DNA of 64,000 nt, taken from the NCBI GenBank assembly GCA_963761335.1, contig CAVXGR010000005.1:229684-293683 (forward strand), read 5' to 3'. The notes beneath the pieces are model-generated. The model was not told the DNA's origin and searched no databases. It saw only the letters and a list, made by a program, of their open reading frames with translations. The position numbers and the translations under genes were made by a program. Source of the stretch: an uncultured delta proteobacterium (GTDB lineage: Bacteria > Desulfobacterota > Binatia > HRBIN30 > BPIQ01). Below, one piece after another: positions 6,747 to 58,625 of this stretch. Within the stretch, counting starts at the first letter, position 1; the number at the start of each line of letters is the position of its first letter.

Positions 6747-8267
6747 ATGAGCGGCCCCCGGCTGGCCGATCTGCTCGCCGACGTCGAGGTTCTCGAGCGG
6801 CGCGGCTCCGTCGACATTCACATCGGCCACATTCGCTCCGATTCGCGGCTGGTCGAGCCGGGCGACCTCTTCGTCTGTCTGCCCGGCTACCGCACCGAGG
6901 GCGGCGAGAAGCGCGCCGATCGCCACCTGTTCGTCCCCGAAGCGCTGCGGCGCTGCGCCGCCGCCCTGGTGGTGGAGCGAGAGCCCGACACGAAGCTGCC
7001 GGCGCATCTGCCGGTGGTGCGGGTGCGCGACTGCTGGGCGGCGATCGCGGCGCTCTCGTGCGGGTTCTACGGCCAGCCCTCGCGACAGCTGCGGATGGTC
7101 GGTGTCACCGGCACCAGCGGCAAGACCTCGACCACCTACTTCATCGATTCGGTTCTGTCCGCAGCGGGCCTGCCCGCGGCGCGCCTGGGCACGATCGAGT
7201 ACAAGCTCGGCAGTGTGCGTCTGCCGGCGTCGCAGACGACACCCGAAGCTCCCGAGATGCAGCAGCTGCTGCGCCGCGCGCTCGACGAGGGCGCCGCCGC
7301 AGTGGTGATGGAGGTTTCGTCGCATGCGCTCGAGCTGCGGCGCGTGCAGGGCATCGCCTACGACGTCGCGGTATTCACCAATCTCAGCCAGGACCACCTG
7401 AACTTCCACCCCGACATGCACAGCTATCTGCGCGCCAAGGGGCGCCTCTTCGAGGAGCTCGGCAGCGGCGGCAAGGACGCCGTGGCGGTGGTGAACCGCG
7501 ACGATCCGGCGAGCGAGTACATCGAGAAGGTCAATCGCGGGCGGCTGCTGACTTACGGAATCAGCCCTCGGGCGGACGTGCGGGCGGAGGACGTCTCCAT
7601 CGGCCAGGGCGGCAGCCGTTTCCGGGCGCGCACCCCCGCCGGCGACGTCGACGTCTCGCTGGCGCATCTCGGCGAGTACAGCGTCCACAACGCGCTGGCG
7701 GCGGCGGCGACGGGAGTGGCACTGGGCCTGCCGCTGGACGAGATCGCCCGCGGCATCGACGCCGCTCCGCAGGTTCCCGGGCGTTTCGAGCTGATCGATT
7801 GCGGCCAGCGGTTTGCGGTGATCGTCGACTACGCCCACAAGCCCGACGCCTTGGAGCGCGTCATCCGCAGCGTGCGCGGCCTGCGGCCGCGGCGGGTGAT
7901 CACGGTTTTCGGCTGCGGCGGCGACCGCGACCGCGGCAAGCGTCCGATCATGGGCGCGATCGCGGCGCGCCTGAGCGACGTCGCCGTGGTGACCTCCGAC
8001 AACCCGCGCAGCGAGAGCCCGGAGGCGATCATCGAGGAGATCTGCGGCGGAATTCCGGCAGACTCCGCGGCCGAGGTGGTCGTCGAGCCGGACCGCGCTC
8101 GGGCCATCGACACCGCCATGCGCCTGGCGCGGGCGGAGGATGCGGTGATCATCGCTGGCAAGGGCCACGAGAACTACCAGCTGCTCGGCGACCGCCGCAT
8201 CCACTTCGACGACCGCGAGATGGCGCGCCAGGCGCTGGCGCGCCGCACCGACCCACCGAGCCACTGA
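6747..8267 (+). CDS. murE: UDP-N-acetylmuramoyl-L-alanyl-D-glutamate--2,6-diaminopimelate ligase
   Basis: Mur ligase P-loop GVTGTSGKTST and the DNPR motif, with full-length MurE architecture. Start chosen at MSGPRLADL; the alternative start is at 6726. Confidence 0.85.
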   Translation: MSGPRLADLLADVEVLERRGSVDIHIGHIRSDSRLVEPGDLFVCLPGYRTEGGEKRADRHLFVPEALRRCAAALVVEREPDTKLPAHLPVVRVRDCWAAIAALSCGFYGQPSRQLRMVGVTGTSGKTSTTYFIDSVLSAAGLPAARLGTIEYKLGSVRLPASQTTPEAPEMQQLLRRALDEGAAAVVMEVSSHALELRRVQGIAYDVAVFTNLSQDHLNFHPDMHSYLRAKGRLFEELGSGGKDAVAVVNRDDPASEYIEKVNRGRLLTYGISPRADVRAEDVSIGQGGSRFRARTPAGDVDVSLAHLGEYSVHNALAAAATGVALGLPLDEIARGIDAAPQVPGRFELIDCGQRFAVIVDYAHKPDALERVIRSVRGLRPRRVITVFGCGGDRDRGKRPIMGAIAARLSDVAVVTSDNPRSESPEAIIEEICGGIPADSAAEVVVEPDRARAIDTAMRLARAEDAVIIAGKGHENYQLLGDRRIHFDDREMARQALARRTDPPSH

Positions 8268-8330
8268 GCCACCGGGCCACTGTTTCCGCCCTCGCGAAAC
8301 TCCCCGGGGTGGGTTACGCTGAGGCGACGC

Positions 8331-9196: not shown

Positions 9197-9911
9197 CCTC
9201 TTGCGCGGGGGGGGACAGCGGATCCGCTCTGCGGACCTCGCCTTCCCTTCGCGGCTGTCATGTCCCGTCCCTCCCGCGGTGAAAATTGTACAGGGATGCG
9301 GCGACGGGGACCCCTGAGGACGCTTTTCTCTGGCAATACGATCGATATGCGGAGCAGAATGCCGATGGTTGGGCCGTTGCTATTGCGTGCAGAATGTATT
9401 GTCAGCGACTCTTCGTCGCCGTTGTGGTGTCGATGTTGGTTGGCGTCCTGCCGGTGCAGGCGCGACGCCTGAATGTATCGACGCAAATTGTCACTTCCGA
9501 TGCCGTCGGCGGCTATGACGCCGCGGCTCTTCCCTTCGATCCGATGACCTTCGAGAGCCCCCATTCGGGATGGGGCGAGCTCGGTAAGACCCGGTGGTGG
9601 GCCATCCTCGTCGCCCAGGTCGTGGTCCGCTTGGGGATCGTCGGCACGGAGTATTCCCCCCGGCTGGTCGAGCTCACCGAGGGACTCATGCACCACCCCG
9701 AGCTCGACTGGCAGATGCGCCTCGGTCGAGCGCAGAAGACCCGGCTGAACTTCCAGCTGAAGGCGGCCCATGGCGGCCCGAGGGCGGGGGTGTTGTTCAG
9801 ATGGTAGGGCGGCTCAGCATCTCAGTATCTCGGTGCCTCAGTGTCTCGGTACATTCGGTGGCCTCATTGAGCCACCGAGACACCGGGTTACCGAGCCACC
9901 GGGTCACCGGG

Positions 9912-10397
9912 TCACTGAGACACCGGTTGACCGGCTTGCAGATGCCGCAGCGTTTCGATCGCTTCGTCGATATGGACGTCGATGCCGAGCTCGCTCTGGA
10001 TGACGTGCTGGATGACGCCGTTCTTGTCGATGACGAAGGTGACGCGCTTGGTGGGCAGCCAGCCGCCGAGGCGCTGGACGCCGTAGGCGGTGGCGATGCG
10101 GCCGTCGCGATCGCTCACCAGCGGGTAGGGCAGCTGGTACTTCTCGGCGAAGGCCCCGTGTTTCTCCGCGGTATCGAGGCTCACGCCGATGATCTCGCCG
10201 TCGAGCGCGGCGATCTCGGCGCGGCGGTCGCGGAAGCTGCACGCCTCCTTGGTGCAGCCGGGGGTGAAGTCCTTCGGAAAGAAGTAGAGGATCACGTGGC
10301 GCCGGCCGCGGTAATCGCTCAGCTTGAGCTGGCGGCCGCCGGCGAGAGTTCCCGTGAAGTCGGGTGCGGCATCAGTCTTTGAGAGCATCTCTGGCAT
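9912..10397 (-). CDS. bcp: thiol peroxidase / peroxiredoxin Bcp (AhpC/TSA family)
   Basis: FFPKDFTPGCTKEAC peroxidatic-Cys motif. 161 aa. Confidence 0.85.
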   Translation of the reverse strand: MPEMLSKTDAAPDFTGTLAGGRQLKLSDYRGRRHVILYFFPKDFTPGCTKEACSFRDRRAEIAALDGEIIGVSLDTAEKHGAFAEKYQLPYPLVSDRDGRIATAYGVQRLGGWLPTKRVTFVIDKNGVIQHVIQSELGIDVHIDEAIETLRHLQAGQPVSQ

Positions 10398-12335: not shown

Positions 12336-12830
12336 AGTGGCTCGGTGGCTCGGTTATCGGGTTGTCGGGTTATCGAGTTTTGGTGATGGTAGCCGGTGGG
12401 TTTCAACCCGCGGCTGTGGCGTTTGGGCGCCTGCGCCCCTGACGGGGCGCGTGCAGAAGCCTGCCAATTTCCCCGGGTTTCACCCGGGGCTACACGCCTG
12501 CGCCCCCTTCGGGGGCGGCATCCGAATCGGCCTCGCCTGCGCCCCCTTCGGGGCGGCATCCGAATCGGCCTCGCCTGCGCCCCGGGGGCGGCATCCGAAG
12601 CGGCCGATGGGCGTCCAACCTCGTCGCCGGGGGTTGAACAGTCTGTCTCAAGACCTCGGCAAAACGATTCCGCAAGCCCGCGAACCAAGTAGAAGCGGCG
12701 TCTCGCCGCTTCGGAAAGCGCCGGGACGGCGCTTCTACCTCGGTTTGAGACAGCTTCTGAGACCCCCGGCTACCATCAACAGACCCGCCAACCCGCCAAC
12801 CCGATAACCGAGCCACCGAGCCACCGGCTT
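12336..12830. mobile_element. composite non-autonomous repeat element bounded by 28-bp perfect inverted repeats
   Basis: GTGGCTCGGTGGCTCGGTTATCGGGTT at 12336-12365 is the exact reverse complement of 12797-12826. The interior holds family-B palindromes (CCCCGGGTTTCACCCGGGG, GCGCCCCCTTCGGGGGCG x3) and one full family-A MITE (12643-12752). Confidence 0.6.
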
Positions 12831-16640: not shown

Positions 16641-17788
16641 AGCGGCCGGTCGCCGTCGTCGGCGTCGGGCAGACGCATCACAGCTCGCGCCGGGTGGACG
16701 TCAACACCGCCGAGCTGGTGCGTGAAGCGATCGACCGCGCTCTCCTCGACGCCGGTCTCGAGCATCGCGATATCGACGCCATCATCATCGGCAAGGCTCC
16801 GGACATGCTCGAGGGCATCATGCAGCCCGAGCAGCTCCTCATCGGCGCCGTCGGCGGCCATCTCAAGCCCGTCCTGCGCGTGCACACCGCCGGCTCGGTC
16901 GGCGCCTCGACGGCCCTCGCCGGCGTCACCCACGTCACCTCGGGGCTGTTCGACCGCGTGCTGGTGGTCGCCTTCGAGAAGCAGTCGGAGGGCAACGTCA
17001 TGTGGGCGCTGTCGCCGAACATGCCGTTCACGGCGCCGCTGGTGGCCGGGGCGGGCGGCTTCTTCACGCCCTACATCCGCGCCTACATCCGACTGACGGG
17101 GGCGCCGCCGCACATCGGCCCGATGATCGCCGCCAATGCGCGCGCCAACGCCGGCCGCAACCAGTACGCGCACCTGCGCGAGCCGGTGACGGTCGAGGAC
17201 GTCATGCAGTCGCCGATGCTGTGGGACCCGATCCGCTACCTGGAGACCTGCCCGTCGTCGGACGGCGCCGTCGCCCTCGTGATCTCCAGCGAGGAGCAGG
17301 CGCGCAAGGGGCCGCGCAAGCCGGCCTGGGTGAAGTCGGGCGCCTCCTACGCCGAGGCCATGTGGGTGCCGGGCCGCGATCAGGTGAACCCCACGGCCGG
17401 ACGGGTGTGCTCCAAGGCGGTCTATGACGCCGCCGGCATCACCGACCCCTGGAACCAGATCGACGTCGCCGAGATCTACGTGCCGTTCTCGTGGTTCGAG
17501 GCGATGTGGCTCGAGAACCTCGGCTTCTGCGGCCACGGCGAGGGCTGGAAGATCGTCGACCGCGGCGAGCAGAAGTTCGGTGCGCACCTGCCGATCAATC
17601 CCTCCGGCGGCGTGCTGTGCACCAACCCCATCGGCGCCTCCGGCATGCTGCGCCTCGGCGAGGCGGCGCTGCAGGTGATGGGGCGCGCCGGCGAGCATCA
17701 GGTCGAGGGGGCGAAGGTCGCCCTCGGCCACGCCTATGGCGGCGGTGCGCAGTACTTCGCCATGTGGATCGTCGGCAGCGAGCAGTAG
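16637..17788 (+). CDS. thiolase-superfamily protein (SCP-x/Ltp2-like, non-canonical)
   Basis: ATGA start/stop overlap with the previous gene. NPSGG motif. The nucleophile Cys is absent (HTAGSVGAS) and the GHP motif reads TNPIGASG. Confidence 0.75.
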   Translation: MKRPVAVVGVGQTHHSSRRVDVNTAELVREAIDRALLDAGLEHRDIDAIIIGKAPDMLEGIMQPEQLLIGAVGGHLKPVLRVHTAGSVGASTALAGVTHVTSGLFDRVLVVAFEKQSEGNVMWALSPNMPFTAPLVAGAGGFFTPYIRAYIRLTGAPPHIGPMIAANARANAGRNQYAHLREPVTVEDVMQSPMLWDPIRYLETCPSSDGAVALVISSEEQARKGPRKPAWVKSGASYAEAMWVPGRDQVNPTAGRVCSKAVYDAAGITDPWNQIDVAEIYVPFSWFEAMWLENLGFCGHGEGWKIVDRGEQKFGAHLPINPSGGVLCTNPIGASGMLRLGEAALQVMGRAGEHQVEGAKVALGHAYGGGAQYFAMWIVGSEQ

Positions 17789-17871
17789 CTCAGTAGCCCA
17801 GTGGCTCGGTAGGTCTGAGTAACGGGCAACCAGTCGATCTCGGCGCCGCAATTCCTCTCAAGGAGCATTTC

Positions 17872-18714: not shown

Positions 18715-18880
18715 CTGTTTTCCGTCGAGTTCTCCGTTCTCATTCTCGGTTCTCGTCCCGTCGTTTTCCATTGTTCTGCGAGCCGCGGCGAAACCGGTCA
18801 GCTGCGGGTTTCTCGGGGCTGTCAGAGCGAATGGAAAACGACGAGACGAGAACCGGGAATGAGAACGGGAATGGGGGAGA
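18715..18880. repeat. long imperfect inverted repeat (arms of about 45 bp) with an internal small hairpin, AT-enriched
   Basis: CCGTTCTCATTCTCGGTTCTCGTCCCGTCGTTTTCCATTG pairs with CAATGGAAAACGACGAGACGAGAACCGGGAATGAGAACGG. Lies between the crotonase and SGNH-hydrolase genes. Confidence 0.5.
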
Positions 18881-31110: not shown

Positions 31111-32720
31111 TGCCAGTGCTCCATCGCCAGCTTGAGCCGGCTCTCGGCGGCGATCAGGAAGTTCCCGGAGGTGACGATGACATCGCCCTCCTGCAGTCCC
31201 GCGGTGATCTCCACCAGATTTTCGGACTTCTGTCCGATCTCGACGCGCTGCGGCTTGAGGCGTCCCTGGCCGAGATCGAGGAAGACGAAGCGGCGCGCAC
31301 CGGCATAGAGGATCGCCTGCTCCGGGACGGTCAGGCGCTCGCCGAGGTCGCGCTGCAGCTCGACGTTGGCGTACATGTCCGGCTTCAGACGGCGGCCGGG
31401 GTTGTCGAGCTCGACGCGTACGCGGCCGGTGCGCGTCGTGTCGTCGAGGTAGGGATAGACGAAGGCGACGCGCCCGTGCAGGACCTCGCCGGGAACATAC
31501 GCCAGGGTGACCACCGCTTCGTCTCCGGGATGCACCAGGGCCAGCTCCGACTCGTAGACCTCGGCCTCCACCCAGACGCGATCCAGGCCGGCGATGCGGA
31601 ACAGCTTCATGCCCGGCTCGACGGCGGCGCCCTCGACGACGTTCTTCTCGACCACGGCGCCGGACACCGGAGAGAGGATGGGAACATACTCGAGCGGCTT
31701 GCCGGAGCGCGCGATCCGATCGATCTGCGCCTCGCCCAGATCCCACAGGCGCAGTCGCTGCCGCGCCGCGCCCACCAGGTAGTCGGCGCGATCGGGTGCC
31801 GAGGTCTTCGCCGCGGCGCGCCGGCTGGCCAGCGCCGTGAGGAGCTCCTGCTGGGTGGCGTAGAGATCCGGGCTGTAGAGGGTGAACAGCGGCTCGCCCT
31901 TGTGCACCTCCTGGCCCGGAGTGTCGGCGTAGAGAGTGCCGATCCACCCCTGATACTTGACGGAGACGTCGGCGAGGCGGGTCTGGTCGTAAACCACCTT
32001 GCCGACGGCGCGGATGGTGATCGTCAGCGGTCGCCGCTGCACCGGCGCCGTGGTGACGCCGATGGTCTGCCGGCGCTGCGCATCCACCATGATGACTCCG
32101 GTCTCCGCCTCGCTGCGCGTCACCGGCACCAGATCCATCGAGCAGATCGGGCAGGTGCCCGGCTTCTGGCTGCGCACCGACGGATGCATCGAGCAGGTGT
32201 AGTAGGCGATCTCGTCACCGCCCGCGGCGGCGTTCTTTCCGTCGTCTGCCGACCCCGTTCCGGTCGATCCGGCGGTCAGCCCGCGACGGCCGACGGTGAT
32301 GCCGTAGTTGGCCTCCGCGGAAGTGCCGCCGGCGGCGATTGCGACCTGCACCGTCCAGCTGCCCCCCATCGGGAAGTCCAGAGCGGCGATGTAGCGCCCG
32401 CCGCCGAGCGGCGTCACCGGACCCTTGCCGCGCATCTCCGACATGGCGCCCATGGCCGGCATCAGGTAGCCCACCTGGATCTGGGCGTTCTCGACTGGAG
32501 CGCCGAGGGCGTCGGTGAGGCGCAAGCGCAGGGCATTTCCCTTTTCCGCGGGCGGATCGGGGCGGATCTCGGCGGCGATGGTGAAGTCCCCCGCGCGAGT
32601 CTCCACGGTGTTGCCGGGGGGGCGGTCGCAGGAAAGTGGCGTCGCCACCAGGGTGAGCATCGACATGAAGCGCGCCAGCGTCGAAAGGCGCGTGAGCGCA
32701 ATTGACGTGAACATCTTCAT
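31107..32720 (-). CDS. efflux RND periplasmic adaptor (membrane-fusion protein), CusB-like, with N-terminal heavy-metal-binding domain
   Basis: YYTCSMHPSVRSQKPGTCPICSMDLVPV heavy-metal-binding motif. Adaptor beta-barrel and lipoyl regions. ATGA overlap with the pump gene. Confidence 0.85.
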   Translation of the reverse strand: MKMFTSIALTRLSTLARFMSMLTLVATPLSCDRPPGNTVETRAGDFTIAAEIRPDPPAEKGNALRLRLTDALGAPVENAQIQVGYLMPAMGAMSEMRGKGPVTPLGGGRYIAALDFPMGGSWTVQVAIAAGGTSAEANYGITVGRRGLTAGSTGTGSADDGKNAAAGGDEIAYYTCSMHPSVRSQKPGTCPICSMDLVPVTRSEAETGVIMVDAQRRQTIGVTTAPVQRRPLTITIRAVGKVVYDQTRLADVSVKYQGWIGTLYADTPGQEVHKGEPLFTLYSPDLYATQQELLTALASRRAAAKTSAPDRADYLVGAARQRLRLWDLGEAQIDRIARSGKPLEYVPILSPVSGAVVEKNVVEGAAVEPGMKLFRIAGLDRVWVEAEVYESELALVHPGDEAVVTLAYVPGEVLHGRVAFVYPYLDDTTRTGRVRVELDNPGRRLKPDMYANVELQRDLGERLTVPEQAILYAGARRFVFLDLGQGRLKPQRVEIGQKSENLVEITAGLQEGDVIVTSGNFLIAAESRLKLAMEHWQ

Positions 32721-34357
32721 CGCGGTTCTCCGTGGTCGGACTGCTGGTGGGTTTCCGCCGTTGTCGGAACGGCGGGGGCGAACGCCGTGCCGGGAAGGCC
32801 GCCGAGGAGGCGGGTGAGCTCGGCCAGACGCCGGTGGAAGTCGGCGAGCGCCTCTTCGTAGCTCAGCTGCACGGCGCGCTGGTTGCGCTCCGCGTCGATG
32901 AGGGCGAGGAAGCTGTTGCCGCCGCTCTCAAATCCGGCGCGCGCCGCCTGCACCTGATCGCGGGCGGCGGGCAGCAGGCGGCCGAGGTAGAGGTCGACGA
33001 TGTGGTGCATCTCCAGCAATCGCGCCGCCGTTTGCTCGACGTCGGAGCGGACGTCGTCAATGAGGCGCTGGCGCTCGCTCTCTGCCTGCTGCAGCTTGGC
33101 GCGCGCCTCGGCTTCGGCGGCGTCGAGACGCCCGCGCCAGATCGGCAGGTTGACAGAGGCGCCAATCATCCAGCGGTGCTCCTCGTCGTTCCACATCGAG
33201 TTGTATGAGCTGGTGAGGCCGAAATCCGGATAGCGCTCCAGCCCGGCCAGCTCCACGGCGGCGCGGCGGCCGCGGACATCGGCGGCGGCCATCGCCAGCT
33301 CCGGTCGCCGTTCGACGGCGAGATCGGCGAGGCGATCGACATCGGTGTGGGCCATCTGCAGCAGCGGGCTCTCGGTGGGCGGCGGCAGCATCTTTGGCGG
33401 CGGCGGCAGCGGCGCCGCATAAGATCGGTGCAGCAGCGTGTTGATGCGGGCGACGAGCACGTCGCGGTCGGTTGCCAGGGTCACCTTGCGGTGCTCCAGG
33501 TGCGCCAGCTCGACCTCGGCCGCCAGCGGCTCCTGCTGCGACAGACGTCCGGCGGCGTACTGGTCGGTGGCGGCGCGCTTGAGCGCGGCGAGCAGGCGGA
33601 CGTGCTCGTCGTTGATCTCGTCGGCGCGGTCGAGAAGGTAGTAATCGTAGAAGAGAAAGGTCGCCGCCAGAGCCGTCTCCAGGCGCAGCGAGTCGTACGC
33701 CTGCCGGCTCGATTCCGCCTCGGCGAGGGCCGCCTCGCCGCGCAGCCGCAGCTTTCCCGGCCAGGGGAGCTTCTGTGAGAGCTCGATCTGCTGGCCGTAG
33801 TCGACGCTGCTCGAGCCGATGCTCAGGGGCGCCAAGCCGTAGGCGAACATCGGATCGTCGAGCGCCGTGGCTTGCGGGTAGCGCGCTACGGTGGCGGTCC
33901 AGGCGCTGCGCAGCGCCGCCAGGCTCGGGTTGCGGCGCAGCACGGCGCGCCGCAGCTCGTCGACGTCGAGCACGGCTTCGCCCTGAAAGAGCGGCGCGTC
34001 ACTGAACGCGGCGCCCCGCCGCGTAGTGAGGAGGCGGGACGCCTCCTCTACAGTGGACGCGGCGTCCCGCCGCGTGGTGAGGAGGCGGGACGCCTCCTCT
34101 ACAGTAGACGCGGCGTCCCGCCGCGTGGTGAGGAGGCGGGACGCCTCCTCTACAGTGGACGCGGCGTCCCGCCGCGTGGTGGGGAGGTGGGACGCCTCCT
34201 CTACAGTGGACGCGGCGTCTCGCCGCGTGGTGGGGAGGCGGGACGCCTCCTCTACTTTGGGCCGCGGCCCGGAGCAGCCGGAACCACCGGCGGCGATGAT
34301 CAGCATCGAGCTCCAGAGCACGCGAGCGATAGGTCGTCGCATGTGCAGTACTCCCAC
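32717..34357 (-). CDS. TolC-family outer-membrane efflux lipoprotein (CusC/CzcC-like)
   Basis: Lipobox (AAGGSGCSG) and paired outer-membrane-factor repeats. ATGA overlap with the adaptor gene. Confidence 0.8.
   Translation of the reverse strand: MGVLHMRRPIARVLWSSMLIIAAGGSGCSGPRPKVEEASRLPTTRRDAASTVEEASHLPTTRRDAASTVEEASRLLTTRRDAASTVEEASRLLTTRRDAASTVEEASRLLTTRRGAAFSDAPLFQGEAVLDVDELRRAVLRRNPSLAALRSAWTATVARYPQATALDDPMFAYGLAPLSIGSSSVDYGQQIELSQKLPWPGKLRLRGEAALAEAESSRQAYDSLRLETALAATFLFYDYYLLDRADEINDEHVRLLAALKRAATDQYAAGRLSQQEPLAAEVELAHLEHRKVTLATDRDVLVARINTLLHRSYAAPLPPPPKMLPPPTESPLLQMAHTDVDRLADLAVERRPELAMAAADVRGRRAAVELAGLERYPDFGLTSSYNSMWNDEEHRWMIGASVNLPIWRGRLDAAEAEARAKLQQAESERQRLIDDVRSDVEQTAARLLEMHHIVDLYLGRLLPAARDQVQAARAGFESGGNSFLALIDAERNQRAVQLSYEEALADFHRRLAELTRLLGGLPGTAFAPAVPTTAETHQQSDHGEPR
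34015..34265. repeat. in-frame tandem repeat, 51 bp x about 5, encoding VEEASRL(P/L)TTRRDAAST in the N-terminal linker of the outer-membrane factor
   Basis: Each DNA unit carries two GC-rich hairpins (GAGGAGGCgggacGCCTCCTC; GGACGCgGCGTCC). Confidence 0.8.
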
Positions 34358-35599: not shown

Positions 35600-36010
35600 C
35601 ACAAGTCAGCCGCTACTTCGAAAATCTGCTGGGTGAAGGTCTGGCGGAGCCCCGGCGCTTGGGGTGGAGATTATCGCCCCGGAGGGGCGCGGGCATGTAG
35701 CCCCGGGTGCCAACCCGGGGACCGCGTCCCGATTGCCCGGATCTGCGCCCCGGAGGGGCGCAGGCGTAGGGGCCGCGTGAATCACGTCGATGAGCTTTCC
35801 ACGCACCCAGCGGTGATCATCGGCGTACAGGCGCGACATCGACGAAATTTTGCCCGCGCCCCTGGCGGGGCGCCTATGACGGACCGTGCACTTTTCCCCG
35901 GGTTTCACCCGGGGCTACACGCCACTGCCCCTCCGGGGCGAACTTCGCCGAGGCCGGAACCCCCAAATCTCTTCCCGGGTCAGAACCCCGGCCTCATTTT
36001 CATCGTCTGC
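35600..36010. repeat. MITE-like repeat family B (roughly 400 bp, full-length copy)
   Basis: Related copies at 58409-58625 (5' part, above 90% identity) and 56040-56710 (reverse orientation with an internal duplication of about 205 bp). Imperfect terminal inverted repeats of about 70 bp starting GAAAAT and ending CGCCCCGGAGGGGCG. Fragments also lie inside 12420-12640. Confidence 0.7.
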
Positions 36011-47149: not shown

Positions 47150-47194
47150 GCGGCGGTGCGGGTCGCGAGCACCGCAGTGCCGCCGCCGAAGGTT

Positions 47195-47278
47195 GTTAGG
47201 TGGTTGCGTTGTTGGTTGTTGGTAAGAAGGGGGGACTGACCTAACAACCTAACAACGTAGCAGCCAACAACCCGCCCG
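47195..47278 (+). terminator. long hairpin built from GGTTGTTAGG / CCTAACAACC motifs downstream of hppA
   Basis: GGTTGTTAGGTGGTTGCGTTGTTGGTTGTTGG .. loop .. CCTAACAACCTAACAACG..CCAACAACC. There is no U-tract, so an intrinsic-terminator role is uncertain. Shares the motif of the 54225-54460 array. Confidence 0.35.
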
Positions 47279-52096: not shown

Positions 52097-52122
52097 TTAC
52101 AAAACAAACGTTTGTTCGTCAA
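52097..52122 (-). promoter_or_regulatory. tetR promoter/operator: TTGACG -35 box immediately followed by the perfect palindrome AACAAACGTTTGTT
   Basis: Palindrome at 52103-52116, 15 nt upstream of the tetR ATG (52088). Same sequence and architecture as 14455-14474. Confidence 0.55.
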
Positions 52123-52125
52123 GCC

Positions 52126-52322
52126 GCCAAGGCGAACCGCAGAGGCGCCGAGGGTGCAGAGAAAGGACACCGCCACGATCCGTTACCGGCGTCCCTTCGC
52201 CTGGGGCGTTGCCCCAGGCTGTTGAATTGCGCCCATTCGGGGCTGGAGTGGTCCGAATCTCCCTCGGCGTCCTTGGCGAGCTTCTCCTCTGCGCCCTCGG
52301 CGCCTTGGCGGTTCGCCTTGGC
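52126..52322. repeat. 36-bp imperfect inverted repeat (33/36 matching) flanking a structured segment of about 125 bp in the tetR-dxs intergenic region
   Basis: GCCAAGGCGAACCGCAGAGGCGCCGAGGGTGCAGAG versus CTCTGCGCCCTCGGCGCCTTGGCGGTTCGCCTTGGC. Internal hairpin CCTGGGGcgttgCCCCAGG. Confidence 0.5.
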
Positions 52323-52411
52323 GGCTCTTTGCACCGGTTCTGCACGATCTCTCTGCTGGAATTCCTCGCCGCGGCTCTGCAGTCGTCAAACTCGTATGCT
52401 CTTCTGGGGGC

Positions 52412-54241
52412 ATGAAAGATCAGCTCTCCGCCGCGACCCGTCTGGCTCCGGATGTCTCGCCGCCGCTGCCGGCTCTCGAATATCTGCGGGGGCCGGAGGA
52501 CGTCAGGCGGCTGTCGCCGGCGCAGCTGCAGAGGCTCGCCGAGGAGATGCGCGAGTTTCTCATCGACGCGGTCACCCGCATCGGCGGGCACCTCGGGGCC
52601 GGGCTCGGCGTCGTCGAGCTGACCATCGCGCTGTTCGCCGAGCTCGATCTGAACGATGGCGACAAGCTGGTGTGGGACGTCGGCCACCAGTGCTATCCGC
52701 ACAAGCTGCTCACCGGGCGGGCTCGCGGTTTCGAGTCGCTGCGCCGCCGCGGCGGCATGTCGGGCTTTCCGGATCCGCGCGAGTCGAGCTGGGACACGGT
52801 GAAGACCGGGCACGGGGGCACCAGCATCTCCACCGCCGCCGGCTTCGCCCTCGCCTGGAAGCACGCCGGAGCAGACCCGGAACGGCGCGCCGTGGCGGTG
52901 ATCGGCGACGGCGCCCTGCAGGAAGGCAGCGCCTACGAGGCGCTGCATCACGCCGGCAGCATTGCCGACCTGCCGCTGATCGTCGTCCTCAACGACAACG
53001 GCATGTCGATCAGCCCCAGCGCCGGGGCTCTTCCCGGCCTTCTCGATCGGCAGGGCCGCTCGGGCGGCGACAACTTCTTCGAGCAGCTCGGCTTCCGCTA
53101 CTGCGGTCCGTTCGACGGTCACGACATCGAGGCCGTGCGCCGGGCGCTGCGCACCGCCCGCTGCGAGCCGGGGCCGGTGGTGCTGCACCTGCTGACTCGC
53201 AAGGGACGCGGCTACCGCGACGGCGAGCCCGAGCACACCTGCTATCACGCCGTCTCCGCCGCGGGCGGTGGCGCTGTCGAGTATCCGCAGCAGGGCGGGC
53301 CGAGCTTCACTGCGGCGTTTGCCGACGCCGCCATCGCCATGGCGGAGGAGGATCCGCGCCTGGTGGTGGTCACCGCGGCGATGCTCGAAGGGACCGGGCT
53401 GGTGAAGTTCCAGCGGCGCTTCCCGGATCGCTGCCACGACGTCGGCATGGCGGAGCAGCACGCCGTGGCGCTGGCGGCCGGCTTGGCGCTCGCCGGCCGG
53501 CGGCCGATCTGCGCCATCTACTCGACCTTCCTGCAGCGCGCCTACGACCAGGTGTTCCAGGAGGTGGCGCTGCAGCGCGCCCGGGTTCTCTTCTGTCTCG
53601 ACCGCGGCGGCCTGGTGGGCTCCGACGGCGCCACTCACAACGGCGTCTTCGACGTCGGCTATCTCCGCTGCCTGCCGAACCTGGCGCTGATGGCGCCGCG
53701 CGACATCGGCGAGCTGGCGCAGATGATGCGCCTCGCCTGGGAATGGGATGGACCGGTGGCCATCCGTTTCCCGCGCGGCAGCGGCGCGCGGCCGGAGTGG
53801 CAGCTGCCGCATGCGCCGCTCACCTTCGGCCGCGCCGAGCGCGTCGCCCCGGGGGAGGACGGGTGCATCCTCGCCTACGGGGCGATGACCTATGCGGCCC
53901 TGGAAGTACGGCGGCGCCTGCTCGCCGAGAGCGGCGTGCGGCTGGCCGTGGTCAACGCGCGCTTCGCCAAGCCTCTCGACGAGGACCTGATCGCCGAGGA
54001 GCTACAGCGGCAGCCGGTGGTCTTCACCCTCGAGGATCACGCCCTCAGCTGCGGCTTCGGCGCCGCCGTCGCCGAGCTGGCGCACACCCGCCTGTCGGGG
54101 CAGATGGACAGCGGCCGCCTCTGCCTCCTCGGTATTCCCGATCGCTTCTTCGACCACGCCGAGCGCGCCGAGCAGCTCGAGGAGGCCGAGCTTGGTGTCG
54201 ATCAGATCAAGGGGCGGGTTGTTAGGTTGTTAGGTTGTTAG
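52412..54241 (+). CDS. dxs: 1-deoxy-D-xylulose-5-phosphate synthase
   Basis: TPP-binding GDGALQEGSAYEAL plus transketolase-like pyrimidine and C-terminal domains. The last 8 codons and the stop are encoded by the octamer repeat array. Confidence 0.9.
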   Translation: MKDQLSAATRLAPDVSPPLPALEYLRGPEDVRRLSPAQLQRLAEEMREFLIDAVTRIGGHLGAGLGVVELTIALFAELDLNDGDKLVWDVGHQCYPHKLLTGRARGFESLRRRGGMSGFPDPRESSWDTVKTGHGGTSISTAAGFALAWKHAGADPERRAVAVIGDGALQEGSAYEALHHAGSIADLPLIVVLNDNGMSISPSAGALPGLLDRQGRSGGDNFFEQLGFRYCGPFDGHDIEAVRRALRTARCEPGPVVLHLLTRKGRGYRDGEPEHTCYHAVSAAGGGAVEYPQQGGPSFTAAFADAAIAMAEEDPRLVVVTAAMLEGTGLVKFQRRFPDRCHDVGMAEQHAVALAAGLALAGRRPICAIYSTFLQRAYDQVFQEVALQRARVLFCLDRGGLVGSDGATHNGVFDVGYLRCLPNLALMAPRDIGELAQMMRLAWEWDGPVAIRFPRGSGARPEWQLPHAPLTFGRAERVAPGEDGCILAYGAMTYAALEVRRRLLAESGVRLAVVNARFAKPLDEDLIAEELQRQPVVFTLEDHALSCGFGAAVAELAHTRLSGQMDSGRLCLLGIPDRFFDHAERAEQLEEAELGVDQIKGRVVRLLGC

Positions 54242-54460
54242 GTTGTTAGGTTGTTAGGTTGTTAGGTTGTTAGGTTGTTAGGTTGTTAGGTTGTTAGGTT
54301 GTTAGGTTGTTAGGTTGTTAGGTTGTTAGGTTGTTAGGTTGTTAGGTTGTTAGGTTGTTAGGTTGTTAGGTTGTTAGGTTGTTAGGTTGTCAGCTCAGTC
54401 GTTGAAGAGGGTTCATCCGTACCTAACAACCAACAACTCAACAACTTAACAACCTGCCCT
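54225..54460. repeat. tandem array of about 22 copies of the octamer GGTTGTTA, followed after a spacer by about 4 inverted copies (TAACAACC-like)
   Basis: Read directly from the sequence. The dxs stop codon TAG lies in the third unit. The 3' inverted copies can pair with the array to form a hairpin. Confidence 0.9.
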
Positions 54461-54510
54461 CAAGAACAATCAGGCTTGACTGTTTGTTTGTGATTCGCTA
54501 GCTTCACCGG

Positions 54511-55146
54511 ATGCCGATCGCAGCAGCGGTGAGGGCGCGGCGCACCCAGGCGGAGCGCAGCGCGGCAATGCAGGCGCGCCTGCTCGACGCGGCGCTCGAC
54601 TGTCTGGTCGAGCACGGCTACGCCGGCACCACCACCACCCTGGTCGCCGAGCGCGCCGGGGTATCCCGCGGCGCCCAGCTGCACCACTACCCGACGCGCG
54701 CCGCGCTGGTCTCCGCCGCCATCGAGCACCTCTTTGCCCGGATGACCGAGGAGTACGTCGACGGCTTCGCCCGCCTCGCCCCGGGCGCCGACCGCCTGCG
54801 CGCCGCCGTCGACATGCTCTGGTCGATGTACGCCAGGCCGCCCTACGCCGCCGTCCTCGACCTCTACATCGCGGCGCGCACCGACGCCGAGCTGCGCGCC
54901 CATCTGAAGCCGATCGCCGAACGCCATCAGGAGAACGTCTTCCGCCTGGCGCGCCGCTACTTTCCCGAGGCGGCGCGCCACAATCCCGATTTCGACGTCA
55001 CCCTGGAGCTGGTTCTCGACGCCATGCAGGGCATGGCGGTGTCGCGCTTCGTGCACGGGCGCGCCGCCGCCGGGGCTCGACGCCTGGAGGCCGTGCAGCA
55101 GATCGCCGCCCGCGCCCTGCGTTTCCGTGTTCCCGGGAGGAAGTGA
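54511..55146 (+). CDS. TetR/AcrR-family transcriptional regulator
   Basis: N-terminal HTH (GYAGTTTTLVAERAGVSRGAQLHHYPTRAAL). The promoter has TTGACT followed by GTTTGTTTG. Confidence 0.85.
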   Translation: MPIAAAVRARRTQAERSAAMQARLLDAALDCLVEHGYAGTTTTLVAERAGVSRGAQLHHYPTRAALVSAAIEHLFARMTEEYVDGFARLAPGADRLRAAVDMLWSMYARPPYAAVLDLYIAARTDAELRAHLKPIAERHQENVFRLARRYFPEAARHNPDFDVTLELVLDAMQGMAVSRFVHGRAAAGARRLEAVQQIAARALRFRVPGRK

Positions 55147-56039: not shown

Positions 56040-56710
56040 CGGCTCACCAGCAGACGATGAAGATGAGGCTGGGGATCTGCCCCGTAGAGAGATTTGGCGG
56101 TTCTCGCCTGGGCGAAGTTCGCCCCGGAGGGGCGGTGGCGTGTAGCCCCGGATGAAACCCGGGGAAAAATGCGCGCTCCGTCATAGGCGCCCCGCCAGGG
56201 GGCGCGGGCAGATTTTCGTCGATGTCGCGCCTGTACGCCGATGATCACCGCTGGGTGCGTGGGAAGCTCATCAACGTGATTCACGCGGCCCCTACGCCTG
56301 CGCCCCTCCGGGGCGCTGATCTGGGCAATCGGAACGCGGTCCCCGGGTTGGCACCCGGGGAAAAATGCGCGCTCCGTCATAGGCGCCCCGCCAGGGGCGC
56401 GGGCAGATTTTCGTCGATGTCGCGCCTGTACGCCGATGATCACCGCTGGGTGCGTGGGAAGCTCATCAACGTGATTCACGCGGCCCCTACGCCTGCGCCC
56501 CTCCGGGGCGCTGATCTGGGCAATCGGAACGCGGTCCCCGGGTTGGCACCCGGGGCTACATGCCCGCGCCCCTCCGGGGCGATAATCTCCACCCCAAGCG
56601 CCGGGGCTCCGAGAGACCCTCCGGGGCGATAAGCCTCCACCCCAGCGCCGGGACTCCGCCAGACCTTCACCCAATAGATTTTCGAAGCAGGCTACTTTTG
56701 CGGCTCGAGG
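56040..56710. repeat. family-B MITE-like element in reverse orientation with an internal tandem duplication of about 205 bp
   Basis: 56150-56350 and 56355-56560 are near-identical. The ends match the reverse complement of the 35600-36010 ends. Confidence 0.7.
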
Positions 56711-56760: not shown

Positions 56761-58188
56761 TCAGCCCCAGATGGGCGGGCGGCGGTCGCGCCAGGGGCGG
56801 GCCTCTTCGAGCTGCGCCGCCAGGCGGAAGAGCGTCGCCTCGTCGCCGAAGCGGCCGGTGAACATGAGGCCGACGGGAAGGCCGTCGGCGGTCCAGTGCA
56901 ACGGCAGCGAGATCGCCGGCTGGCCGGTGGCGTTCTGCATCGGCGTGAAGGGCACGTACTCCATCACCGGGGCCATCGCCTTCATCGGGTCCTTCTCCTG
57001 GATGTCGATCGTGCCGAGGCGAATCGGCGGCGATGCCAGCGTCGGCGTCAGCCAGCAGTCATAGGTCTGGTGGAAGCGCGCGATCTGGCGCGAGGCCATC
57101 TGCAGCATCGCCATCGAAAGATGATACTGGCTCGCGGGCACCTGCTTCCCCTGCTGATAGAGGGCCCAGGTGAGCCCCTCGAAGTCCCCTTCGCTCGGCG
57201 TGCGGCCGTTCATGAGACCGAAGCCCTCGATCATCGCGGCGTGAGCCGAGAGGAAGACGGAGAGGAAGGCGCCGCTGAGCATGCCGACGTCGACCGGCGG
57301 AGACGACTCCTCGAGCGTGTGTCCCAGCTCCTCGAGCAGCTTGGCGGTCGACTCCACGGCGGCGACGCACTCCGGGTGCAGGGCCGCGCCACTCGGTGAT
57401 CGCGTCGCGAAGGCGATGCGCAGGCGGCCGGGCGGCGTTCCGGTCTCCTCGAGGAACGGCCGCTTCACCGGCGGCGCCCAGTACGGATCGCCGGGCTCGG
57501 GGCCGTGGGTGCAGTCGAGGGCGGCGGCGCTGTCGCGAACCGTGCGGCTGACGACACCCTCGACGACAATGCCGCCGGCGAAGTCGCCGATGTCCGGCCC
57601 CATCGGGTTGCGGGCCCGCGTCGGCTTGAGACCGACGAGACCGCAGCACGATGCCGGAATGCGAATCGAGCCGCCGCCGTCATTGGCGTGCGCCAGCGGG
57701 ACGATCCCCGCAGCCACGGCGGCGGCGGAGCCGCCACTGGATCCGCCGGTCGAGTGATCGGGGTTCCACGGATTGCGTGCCGGCCCGTAGAGCGCCGACT
57801 CGGTGGTCGGCAGGATGCCGCATTCGGGCGCGTTGGTCTTGCCCAGCGGAATTAGGCCCGCCGCCTTGAAGCGCACCACCAGCGTATCGTCGCGGTGCGC
57901 CGGCACTCCCACCATGAAGCGGCAGGCCGACGCCGTCGGCACGCCCTCGAGGTTGCCGAGGATGTCCTTGAGGAGAAACGGCACACCGCCGAAGGCGCCG
58001 TTCGCCGGTTGCGCCGCGGCGCTGCGGGCGCGGTCGTAGATCTTGTAGACGACCGCGTTCAGCTGCGGGTTGTGTCGCTCGATGCGCGCAATCGCCTCAT
58101 CGACGAGCTCGGCAGGAGTGACCTCGCCGCGGCGCACGAGATCCGCGAGGCCGAGGCCGTCATGGGCGGCATATTCGGAAAAGGACAT
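56761..58188 (-). CDS. amidase (amidase-signature family)
   Basis: [14 protein letters not shown] amidase-signature motif and Ser-cisSer-Lys context. 475 aa from MSFSEY. Confidence 0.85.
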
Positions 58189-58408
58189 GCGCGCACGATT
58201 AGCGCCGCGGCCGCCGCGGTTCAATGGCGGAGGAGAGCCGAGGGGGACTGGCTCCTCTTCGGCTCGAGTGGCGCACTTCGAACGGCGTGTCGCTCGCCGC
58301 CGAAGAGGTGCCTGTCCCCCACCGCCGCGCGCCGCTGGGGACAGGCAACTCTTGCCGTCGGAGGGCGGCAGTTTTCCCGTTTGGTGGTGGCCGGCAAAGT
58401 AGCCTGCT

Positions 58409-58625
58409 TCGAAAATCTGTTGGGTGAAGGTCTGGCGGAGTCCCGGCGCTGGGTGGAGGCTTATCGCCCCGGAGGGGCGTAGGCATGTAGCCCCGGGTGT
58501 CAACCCGGGGACTGCGGTTCCGATTGGCCCAGATCAGCGCGCCGGAGGGGCGCAGGAGTAGAGGCCGCGTGAATCACGTCGATGAGCTTCCCACGCACCC
58601 AGCGGTGATCATCGGCGTACAGGCG
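58409..58625. repeat. family-B MITE-like element, 5' portion
   Basis: Above 90% identical to 35621-35855. Confidence 0.7.

Follow-up and report, generated by a model that had tools for sequence, protein, structure and literature searches.

An octamer array at the end of a Binatia dxs gene belongs to a scattered class of stop-codon-anchored inverted tandem-repeat pairs

Introduction

This study concerns an array of 8-nucleotide (nt) tandem units that runs into the 3' end of dxs, the gene for 1-deoxy-D-xylulose-5-phosphate synthase, in an uncultured delta proteobacterium of the Binatia (GenBank assembly GCA_963761335.1, contig CAVXGR010000005.1, positions 229,684 to 293,683 of the forward strand). 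This whole stretch of 64,000 nt is referred to here as the window, and coordinates are counted from its first letter. The array had been noticed in a reading of the sequence alone, hereafter the original prediction. Among known repeats of this location, the repetitive extragenic palindromic (REP) elements and their BIME and REPIN forms are abundant extragenic palindromes of enterobacteria and pseudomonads that occupy gene 3' ends or lie between cistrons and fall into lineage-specific families. The REP unit is a palindrome of 20 to 40 nt with GTAG at its 5' end and is mobilized by the REP-associated tyrosine transposase (RAYT). REP elements are also targets of the IS110 family and, in Escherichia coli, stabilize the upstream mRNA, for example in malE-malF.

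Two published systems resemble the dxs array more closely. Rehm et al. (2015, PLoS One 10:e0144275, PMC4692102) described GGGAATC heptamer arrays, mostly intergenic, in Xanthomonas campestris and X. axonopodis. These arrays lie nearest to the stop codon of the upstream open reading frame (ORF) or overlap it, include 70 to 75 convergent pairs that could form a stem-loop, reach 14 units in the longest perfect array, and occupy positions of which 83% are common to both species while array lengths differ (PMC4692102). The same paper presents the excess of heptameric repeats in bacteria as known and attributed to polymerase slippage, and cites the short tandemly repeated repetitive (STRR) heptamers that heterocystous cyanobacteria carry as dispersed intergenic tandem 7-mers. 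In Geobacter metallireducens, Aklujkar et al. (2009, BMC Microbiol 9:109, PMC2700814) listed 24 pairs of opposite-strand sites among their "Class 1-3 predicted global regulator binding sites". Each site consists of four tandem octanucleotides GTTGCTYN, with a variable distance between paired sites, and the other classes are built from TCTCCGTS(Y) and from the heptamer MTYCTGA; numerous sites are located 3' of genes or between cistrons, e.g., nifD-nifK. The sites were suggested, without experiment, to bind IHF/HU, and ISGme8 (IS110 family) or ISGme9 (IS481 family) interrupts about half of the octamer pairs (PMC2700814).

The dxs array has the features of such inverted pairs of 7- to 9-nt arrays, namely at least three copies, a convergent partner close by and overlap with a stop codon. 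Shared position with variation in length or sequence was seen for the class in Chthonomonadaceae; for the dxs locus itself, the collections contain no genome closer than 67% Dxs identity.

Results

The dxs stop codon lies inside a perfect octamer array

The end of dxs is taken up by tandem copies of GGTTGTTA. Tandem Repeats Finder (TRF) reports 21.8 copies at 54217-54390 (period 8, 100% matches, score 348), and a variant 23rd unit, GGTTGTCA, carries the array on to 54392. With up to 3 mismatches allowed, the two-unit 16-mer GGTTGTTAGGTTGTTA matches 25 times in the window, compared to 0.04 times expected from shuffles. The locus comprises the following features:

52412..54241, + strand: dxs (609 amino acids), identified by the Pfam domains of P0001; last seven codons and stop codon encoded by the array
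54217..54392, + strand: 5' arm, 21.8 perfect GGTTGTTA units plus the variant GGTTGTCA (TRF)
54218..54241, + strand: array-coded VVRLLGC and TAG (unit 3), every codon being of a rare type in this 68% G+C genome
54393..54421, + strand: unique spacer, forming the loop
54422..54459, + strand: 3' arm, four degenerate inverted units and CCTGCCC, which pairs with GGGCGGG at 54212-54218
54511..55146, + strand: co-directional downstream gene of the TetR family, starting 51 nt past the hairpin

Two long ORFs run into the array. The frame 52412..54241 was taken as dxs and the other, which ends at 54225, was rejected, as their G+C contents at third codon positions are 0.86 and 0.54, respectively. The identity of the product rests on the DXP_synthase_N and Transketolase domains listed in Pfam for an identical database copy (P0001). 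The protein ends in ...LGVDQIKGRVVRLLGC (...GRVVRLLGC), and its TAG (54239-54241) falls inside unit 3, in agreement with the original prediction that about 22 octamers supply the C terminus and the stop codon. Depending on the reading frame, the array adds GC, LLGC or VVRLLGC. Because 8 and 3 are coprime, TAG is met within three units in every frame, so that the predicted ceiling of about 8 additional residues at any copy number holds; on the opposite strand, TAA is likewise met in every frame within three units. With its stop codon in unit 3, dxs therefore encodes the same protein at any copy number of three or more. The stretch of Dxs that is conserved with solved structures stops at ...GVDQ, and the array contributes only the variable tail VVRLLGC. 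This tail matches that of a homologue (P0030) in length and in its R-V-x-x-L-L pattern, a likeness that could be due either to coincidence or to selection.

Past a spacer of about 30 nt, the degenerate inverted units CCTAACAACC AACAACTC AACAACTT AACAACCT and a final GCCC occupy 54422-54459. When aligned with five array units and the preceding GGGCGGG, this 3' arm is complementary at 35 of 40 positions, and the flanks GGGCGGG (54212-54218) and CCTGCCC pair with each other. About 18 pairing registers are open to the short arm because the array is perfect. RNA folding of 54200-54470 gave -84 kcal/mol (z = -6.9 relative to shuffles), and the last five units together with the 3' arm gave -53 kcal/mol (z = -7.3), stable folds that bear out the predicted ability of the inverted units to pair with the array. 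The locus thus combines an array with a pairing partner, folding potential and an invariant protein end.

In the closest Dxs relatives among the loci fetched (66-67% identity), dxs ends in ...GLDADAITARVLALLRR, and next comes a GC-rich hairpin of the canonical type, flanked by runs of A and T. This canonical terminator sits exactly where the dxs hairpin stands here. The loci of these relatives, 54 kb altogether, contain no arrays of period 7 or 8 and two of period 9. None of the loci fetched for comparison is closely related to the window: the nearest Dxs in the protein collection is 67% identical, an exact protein look-up returned no other assemblies of the locus, the protein cluster has a single member, and a 30-nt stretch across the array/loop junction (54389-54418) had no exact match in JGI metagenomes. 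Rfam gave no family at or above the gathering threshold for 54100-54600, the sub-threshold matches being microRNA-precursor hairpin models only. A promoter scan detected no promoter-like site in or beside the array.

The divergent region immediately upstream of dxs contains a separate inverted repeat (52122-52161 / 52287-52326; 40 nt, 93% complementary, 125-nt loop), with the direct repeat CCTTGGCGG inside its arms.

GGTTGTTA hairpins occur in several phyla

The string GGTTGTTA was not found in the literature searched. An exact scan for three consecutive units over 596 Gb, with one genome per species (a set that does not include the source genome) and about 0.004 chance matches calculated, returned 85 stretches in about 50 assemblies. 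Solitary arrays in Bacteroidota, Veillonella, Vibrio and other groups make up approximately two thirds of these and behave as ordinary simple repeats; for instance, two Veillonella genomes with flanks 97% identical carry 4 and 5 units at one locus. The other 25 loci, in 7 assemblies, are hairpins of the form (GGTTGTTA)n, loop, (TAACAACC)n, and the G-rich arm comes first in all of them. The carriers are one Chthonomonadaceae metagenome-assembled genome (MAG), in which all 16 loci are hairpins, two Thermoanaerobaculia, another Acidobacteriota MAG, a Binatia MAG, an unclassified high-G+C MAG and a Peribacteria MAG. The repeat is therefore not "species-specific", as had been proposed: the GGTTGTTA hairpin is present in at least 7 assemblies from several phyla, and its architecture is known with other units in Xanthomonas and Geobacter. 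Arms elsewhere usually have 3 to 6 units, and the longest perfect run in the species scan was 7. A metagenome scan for 8 or more units yielded four contigs only, with a maximum of 13 perfect units (about 20 in all); arrays of this kind were assembled identically in two independent metagenomes.

Three short-read assemblies have GGTTGTTA arrays that run into contig ends (L057 1-87, L052 2114-2155 and L017 3687-3794), and such arrays thus break assemblies. At L013 2396-2595 (MAG "cluster3_bin.132"), about 20 units of CCGTGCGC (77% matches) begin 1 nt past a TAA, and the partner array has 2.8 units. The only viral match, at L086 ~230-560 (IMG/VR contig IMGVR_UViG_3300027863_000019), consists of dozens of period-8 units CGTTAGNN (GTTAGATC, GTTAGAAC, GTTAGGTT) and looks like an iteron or binding-site field, not a hairpin.

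Inverted array pairs with many different units mostly start at stop codons

The GGTTGTTA hairpins are part of a broader class. In 128 kb of the Chthonomonadaceae MAG, TRF found 67 arrays with periods of 7 (26 arrays), 8 (34 arrays) or 9 (7 arrays), and almost none of any other period. Their units (AGTAGGG, GAGATAC, GTAGACG, AGGTGTC, AAGGATG, GGTGTTC and more) mostly form inverted pairs with unrelated loops. In one Chthonomonadaceae genome, there is a hairpin about every 5 kb, and all junctions of one operon are filled. A census over about 260 kb identified 37 inverted pairs, one of which was spurious, leaving 36. The stop codon of an ORF of at least 80 codons lies within -8 to +11 nt of an outer arm edge in 32 of these, compared to 11% of random pseudo-pairs placed in the same loci, and the G-rich arm comes first in 33 of the 36. 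In many GGTTGTTA copies the arm opens with an in-frame TAG stop codon (...GAG TAG GTTGTTAGG), and in several operons 0 to 5 nt separate the other arm from the next ATG (L028, L041, L073 and L015). Many Chthonomonadaceae copies start with GTAGG, and GTAG also occurs within the window units at 17783. The 16 Chthonomonadaceae loci include no clear divergent-promoter context. Inverted tandem-repeat pairs anchored at stop codons thus form a dispersed class of which the dxs array is a member.

Variant units tend to be homogenized within one arm. At L062, three GTTGTCA units stand opposite three GTTGTTA units, and at L009 and L020, GTTCTTA is opposite GTTGTTA; such homogenization fits a turnover of units by slippage. 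Two possible common denominators of the units were dropped. The 5' arms are not Shine-Dalgarno-like arrays as a rule, since GGAG or AGGA occurs in some units but not in GAGATAC or GTAGACG, nor does every unit contain a stop codon, as GAGATAC and AGGTGTC have none and the TGA of Geobacter class 3 reads outward.

Orthologous operon slots keep the hairpin and change the unit

We compared an operon of sugar-binding protein, permease and ATPase genes in four Chthonomonadaceae genomes whose permease DNA is 79-85% identical. All three intergenic slots hold a tandem-unit hairpin that extends from the stop codon to just before the next start codon. Listed by genome, the units are TAGGTTGT, TAGGGAT and TAGGCAT between permease and ATPase; AGGGAAC, TGATGAG and AAGGGAA between binding protein and permease; and AGGGAAC, AGGGAAC and AGGGTTC after the ATPase. 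Arms are 88-100% complementary within a genome but 56-84% across genomes with different unit families, and copy number differs among orthologous hairpins. Position, period class and pairing are hence conserved at orthologous slots, and unit sequence is not. That pairing is kept while the unit sequence changes excludes sequence-specific protein sites as a general explanation, and conservation of the slots together with unit change argues against a one-off insertion.

At L097 8067-8841, in one of the four genomes, the permease-to-ATPase hairpin is replaced by a 770-nt insertion with two small ORFs, and a remnant, TAGGATTCAGG, is left at the stop codon. From their size and position, our guess is that the two ORFs might be a toxin-antitoxin pair.

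Signs of mobility

Copies of one family share irregularities such as a heptamer unit beside the loop, and AGGGAAC hairpins share the loop start AAATACC, so some copying between sites is likely. At L031 4198-5787 (Chthonomonadaceae MAG CAWFQB010000014.1), a DDE transposase gene (Pfam DDE_Tnp_1, DDE_5) has 32-nt terminal inverted repeats that begin with ATAG and are made up of three tandem 9-mers (ACAGGATTA). At L040 7105-7231, a stop codon is immediately followed by a related short pair of 9-mers. A transposase between distant same-family arrays was nevertheless not the rule: L031 is the single case, and four other such arrangements flank purD, a glycosidase, secA and a permease. Whole housekeeping genes are bracketed by same-family inverted arrays in a candidate phyla radiation bacterium (purD, L001 3921-5820), a Bacteroidaceae MAG (glycoside hydrolase, L039 2024-4517) and a Planctomycetaceae MAG (secA, L081 2335-4766), which would make the 5' and 3' untranslated mRNA ends complementary. 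When considered as MITEs (miniature inverted-repeat transposable elements), the pairs do have inverted ends, but target-site duplications were not observed and the copies have unrelated loops. In the window, the 20 ORFs scanned, all element-flanking ORFs included, contained no transposase, and no RAYT (Y1 transposase) in particular.

Other elements in the window

The window contains at least six further elements of like architecture, each of them at a gene 3' end and next to housekeeping genes, in keeping with the proposal of a distinct repeat class at such ends:

47191..47272, + strand: second GGTTGTTA-family hairpin, 41 nt past the hppA stop codon (-42.9 kcal/mol, z = -4.0)
12337..12824, no strand assigned: inverted octamer arms with GGTGGCTC x2 and GGTTATCG/GGTTGTCG x3 (12337-12378 / 12783-12824; 42 nt, 90% complementary)
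9808..9935, no strand assigned: hairpin with degenerate GGTNNNNN octamer arms, the right arm overlapping the 3' end of an AhpC/TSA gene on the - strand
17783..17812, + strand: solitary octamer array (C)AGTAGCT, with the TAG (17786-17788) of a thiolase-like ORF within a unit
8246..8280, + strand: solitary array of CCACCGAG, the GGTGGCTC type in reverse complement, with the TGA (8265-8267) of a Mur-ligase ORF inside it
18734..18868, + strand: hairpin with GTTCTCN heptamer repeats in its arms, between two co-directional genes (-105 kcal/mol, z = -14.5)

The hppA hairpin of the GGTTGTTA motif and the inverted octamer arms near 12336 had both been pointed out beforehand and are present at 47191-47272 and at 12337-12378 / 12783-12824. 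The latter arms abut the stop codons of two convergent genes and enclose 404 nt of other repeats. Canonical terminators are not in excess over shuffles in the window.

Within the 404-nt interior, a 38-bp GC-rich unit is repeated three times, each copy a small hairpin (12495-12605), and nested inverted repeats also occur at 12623-12773. A MITE-like element is present in two copies (35674-35941 and 56119-56582) with 46-nt inverted ends (TCGCCCCGGAGGGGCG...GTAGCCCCGG...); the second copy has an internal 195-bp tandem duplication (56157-56555, 99%), and a fragment with the TTTCCCCGGG motif lies at 12468-12488. A 51-bp unit with strong internal inverted repeats is repeated 4.9 times (95% matches) at 34006-34255, at the upstream end of the ORF 32717..34357 (- strand). 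Finally, a match to the Rfam Acido-Lenti-1 RNA (58465-58510, - strand; 40 bits, gathering score 37) overlaps the 5' end or start region of an amidase-family ORF (~56761-58503, - strand); as the sole taxonomic pointer within the window, it hints at Acidobacteriota or a neighboring group.

Discussion

From these sequence comparisons, we lean with moderate confidence toward a REP-like 3'-end hairpin of which one arm has grown by slippage and whose stem would form the 3'-end structure of the dxs mRNA, replacing the terminator of the relatives. The dxs array would be the over-expanded 5' arm of an inverted tandem 8-nt pair from a REP-like class of palindromes set right after stop codons. An ordinary copy has 3 to 6 units per arm; replication slippage probably took the 5' arm to 22 identical units, the 3' arm would have stayed short and decayed, and the element extends into the unconserved C-terminal tail of dxs. 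Such expansion was presumably tolerated, since the unit contains TAG (on the opposite strand, TAA) and its length, 8, has no common factor with 3. That the array is slippage-prone, as the original prediction put it, finds support of an indirect kind in 22 perfect as opposed to 4 degenerate units, in within-arm homogenization and in copy-number differences. In the dxs transcript, the 3' arm could pair with any of about 18 registers and give a stem of about 35 to 40 bp, which may either hold back 3' exonucleases or terminate transcription independently of a U-tract. The hairpin would in this way stand in for the canonical terminator of the relatives' dxs. A terminator role is plausible: the hairpin lacks a U-tract and a scan match, yet relatives have a canonical terminator at this very place.

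Several observations weigh against such a role or such an origin. A terminator scan found no canonical terminator in 54000-54700, nor is there a U-tract. With 22 units as assembled, the dxs array is the longest seen, the next having 13 perfect units. In the GGTTGTTA family, mismatches between arms show no G.U bias (18 wobbles for the transcribed strand and 16 for its complement, with 34 transversions), and partner arms are not significantly more complementary than non-partners (0.636 versus 0.619; 1359 of 10000 permutations); complementarity could therefore reflect copying and not selection. Furthermore, tandem-unit hairpins are absent from two of the three operon slots in L098 and L099 (70-74% identity), and in one of these two relatives a plain GC-rich stem-loop occupies the first slot, while the second measures only 30 nt. 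The class is thus a lineage-specific bloom that is dispensable in these relatives.

Part of this evidence would suit an element that has no role in the cell and is selfish or a pure product of mutation, i.e., a MITE- or REP-like palindrome or a by-product of fold-back copying and slippage, which would have spread in certain lineages and survived only where harmless, after stop codons, the dxs copy having clipped the tail of its gene. We regard this main alternative as possible though doubtful. The spread is patchy and bloom-like, with 67 arrays in 128 kb of Chthonomonadaceae versus 2 (period 9) in 54 kb of the Dxs relatives, and tandem-unit hairpins were not seen in the operon slots of more distant relatives. 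Mobility is further suggested by the inverted tandem 9-mers that make up the L031 transposase ends, with a related pair in L040, by the IS110- and IS481-family elements in about half of the Geobacter octamer pairs, and by the irregular heptamer unit and AGGGAAC loop start shared among family copies; the poor discrimination between partner and non-partner arms also fits. On the other hand, loops are unrelated within a family, target-site duplications were not seen, the 20 window ORFs scanned include no transposase, many unit families stand side by side in one genome, and same-family arrays also flank ordinary genes. Above all, positions are conserved between genomes of about 80-85% nucleotide identity while units change, and these conserved slots are the one thing that a selfish or mutational origin does not fit. 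Conserved slots also bear on the proposal made for Geobacter, according to which the arrays are inverted sets of duplex DNA sites for a global regulator or nucleoid protein. The IHF/HU suggestion of Aklujkar et al. (2009, PMC2700814), arms that follow the family consensus whatever their partner, and some uncompensated changes between arms speak for it. Nevertheless, unit sequence differs between close genomes at orthologous slots where arms are still complementary, a single genome can contain a dozen or more unit families, and the arrays occupy gene 3' ends with coding overlap instead of promoters, with no divergent-promoter context in the 16 Chthonomonadaceae loci, which makes protein sites very unlikely.

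The length of the dxs array raises two further questions. The hairpin could be real and its 22 units an artifact of assembling a perfect period-8 repeat that exceeds the read or k-mer: 174 bp at 100% identity are longer than a 150-nt read and 3 to 7 times the usual arm length, and three arrays of the genome scan stop at contig ends. Since the array is interior to a 473-kb contig with unique sequence on both flanks, arrays of 13 perfect units (about 20 in all) were assembled alike in two independent metagenomes, and L013 has a 20-unit one-sided array after a stop codon, we consider an artifact quite unlikely. A long perfect repeat at a gene border whose unit is not a multiple of 3 also brings to mind a phase-variable contingency locus, in which copy number alters Dxs or switches the downstream TetR gene. 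This is scarcely credible here, for the stop codon in unit 3 leaves the protein unchanged at three units or more, the TetR gene starts 51 nt past the hairpin, and no promoter-like site lies in or beside the array. A more far-reaching alternative to the slippage-grown REP-like hairpin, which we consider unlikely, holds that stop-codon-anchored palindromes with tandem 7- to 9-nt arms are a distinct cross-phylum element with its own generating mechanism and a role tied to translation. They might originate by fold-back copying of a slipped array or through a dedicated enzyme. A stop codon forms their 5' edge and the start codon of the following cistron their 3' edge (L028, L041, L073, L095 and L096); the stem would thereby bring both together and could link termination with re-initiation or determine how strongly the genes of an operon are expressed relative to each other. 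The unit sequence would be able to turn over provided that the arms pair.

By itself, the dxs array is a harmless over-grown repeat. What is new here is that the class occurs in several phyla, that it starts at stop codons far above chance, and that position and pairing are kept while the unit is replaced. Should these hairpins determine mRNA ends or link the translation of neighboring genes, they would constitute a major layer of gene organization that has gone unannotated in poorly studied phyla; were they selfish, they would represent REP-like elements of a new kind. In either case, the arrays break short-read assemblies and can mislead gene callers about C termini and stop codons.

Known systems share some of these features and lack others. 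Two candidates were rejected outright. A G-quadruplex needs at least four runs of at least three G, and GGTTGTTA has GG only; GTTAGGT and ACCTAAC fit the GTTRRRY/RYYYAAC of integron attC sites, but in reversed order, among housekeeping neighbors and with no cassette context. An intrinsic (Rho-independent) terminator is likewise a stem-loop directly past a stop codon, although the dxs stem would be about 35 to 40 bp instead of 5 to 15, its loop is about 30 nt instead of 3 to 8, and a U-tract is missing. As with REP elements, a Chthonomonadaceae hairpin lies between binding-protein and permease genes; here, however, the arms are direct tandem arrays that are complementary only arm to arm, and the dxs copy starts with GGGCGGGTTGTTAGG, without GT(A/G)G. 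STRR heptamers differ in being mostly solitary arrays, with few inverted pairs in Nostoc (PMC4692102). The GGGAATC arrays of Xanthomonas are alike in having a tandem unit not divisible by 3, a position at the upstream stop codon and convergent pairs, whereas their 7-nt unit is rich in G3, is read as G-quadruplex-forming and has been described in one genus, while GGTTGTTA has only GG runs; extreme one-sided expansion and coding of the tail of an essential enzyme set the dxs array apart from them. The Geobacter unit GTTGCTYN is close to GTTGTTAG and likewise forms inverted octamer pairs at gene ends, but expansion and coding overlap are not reported there. The dxs element hence belongs to a kind already noted, and left unexplained, in two genera, and it is unusual among them in its one-sided expansion and its overlap with coding sequence.

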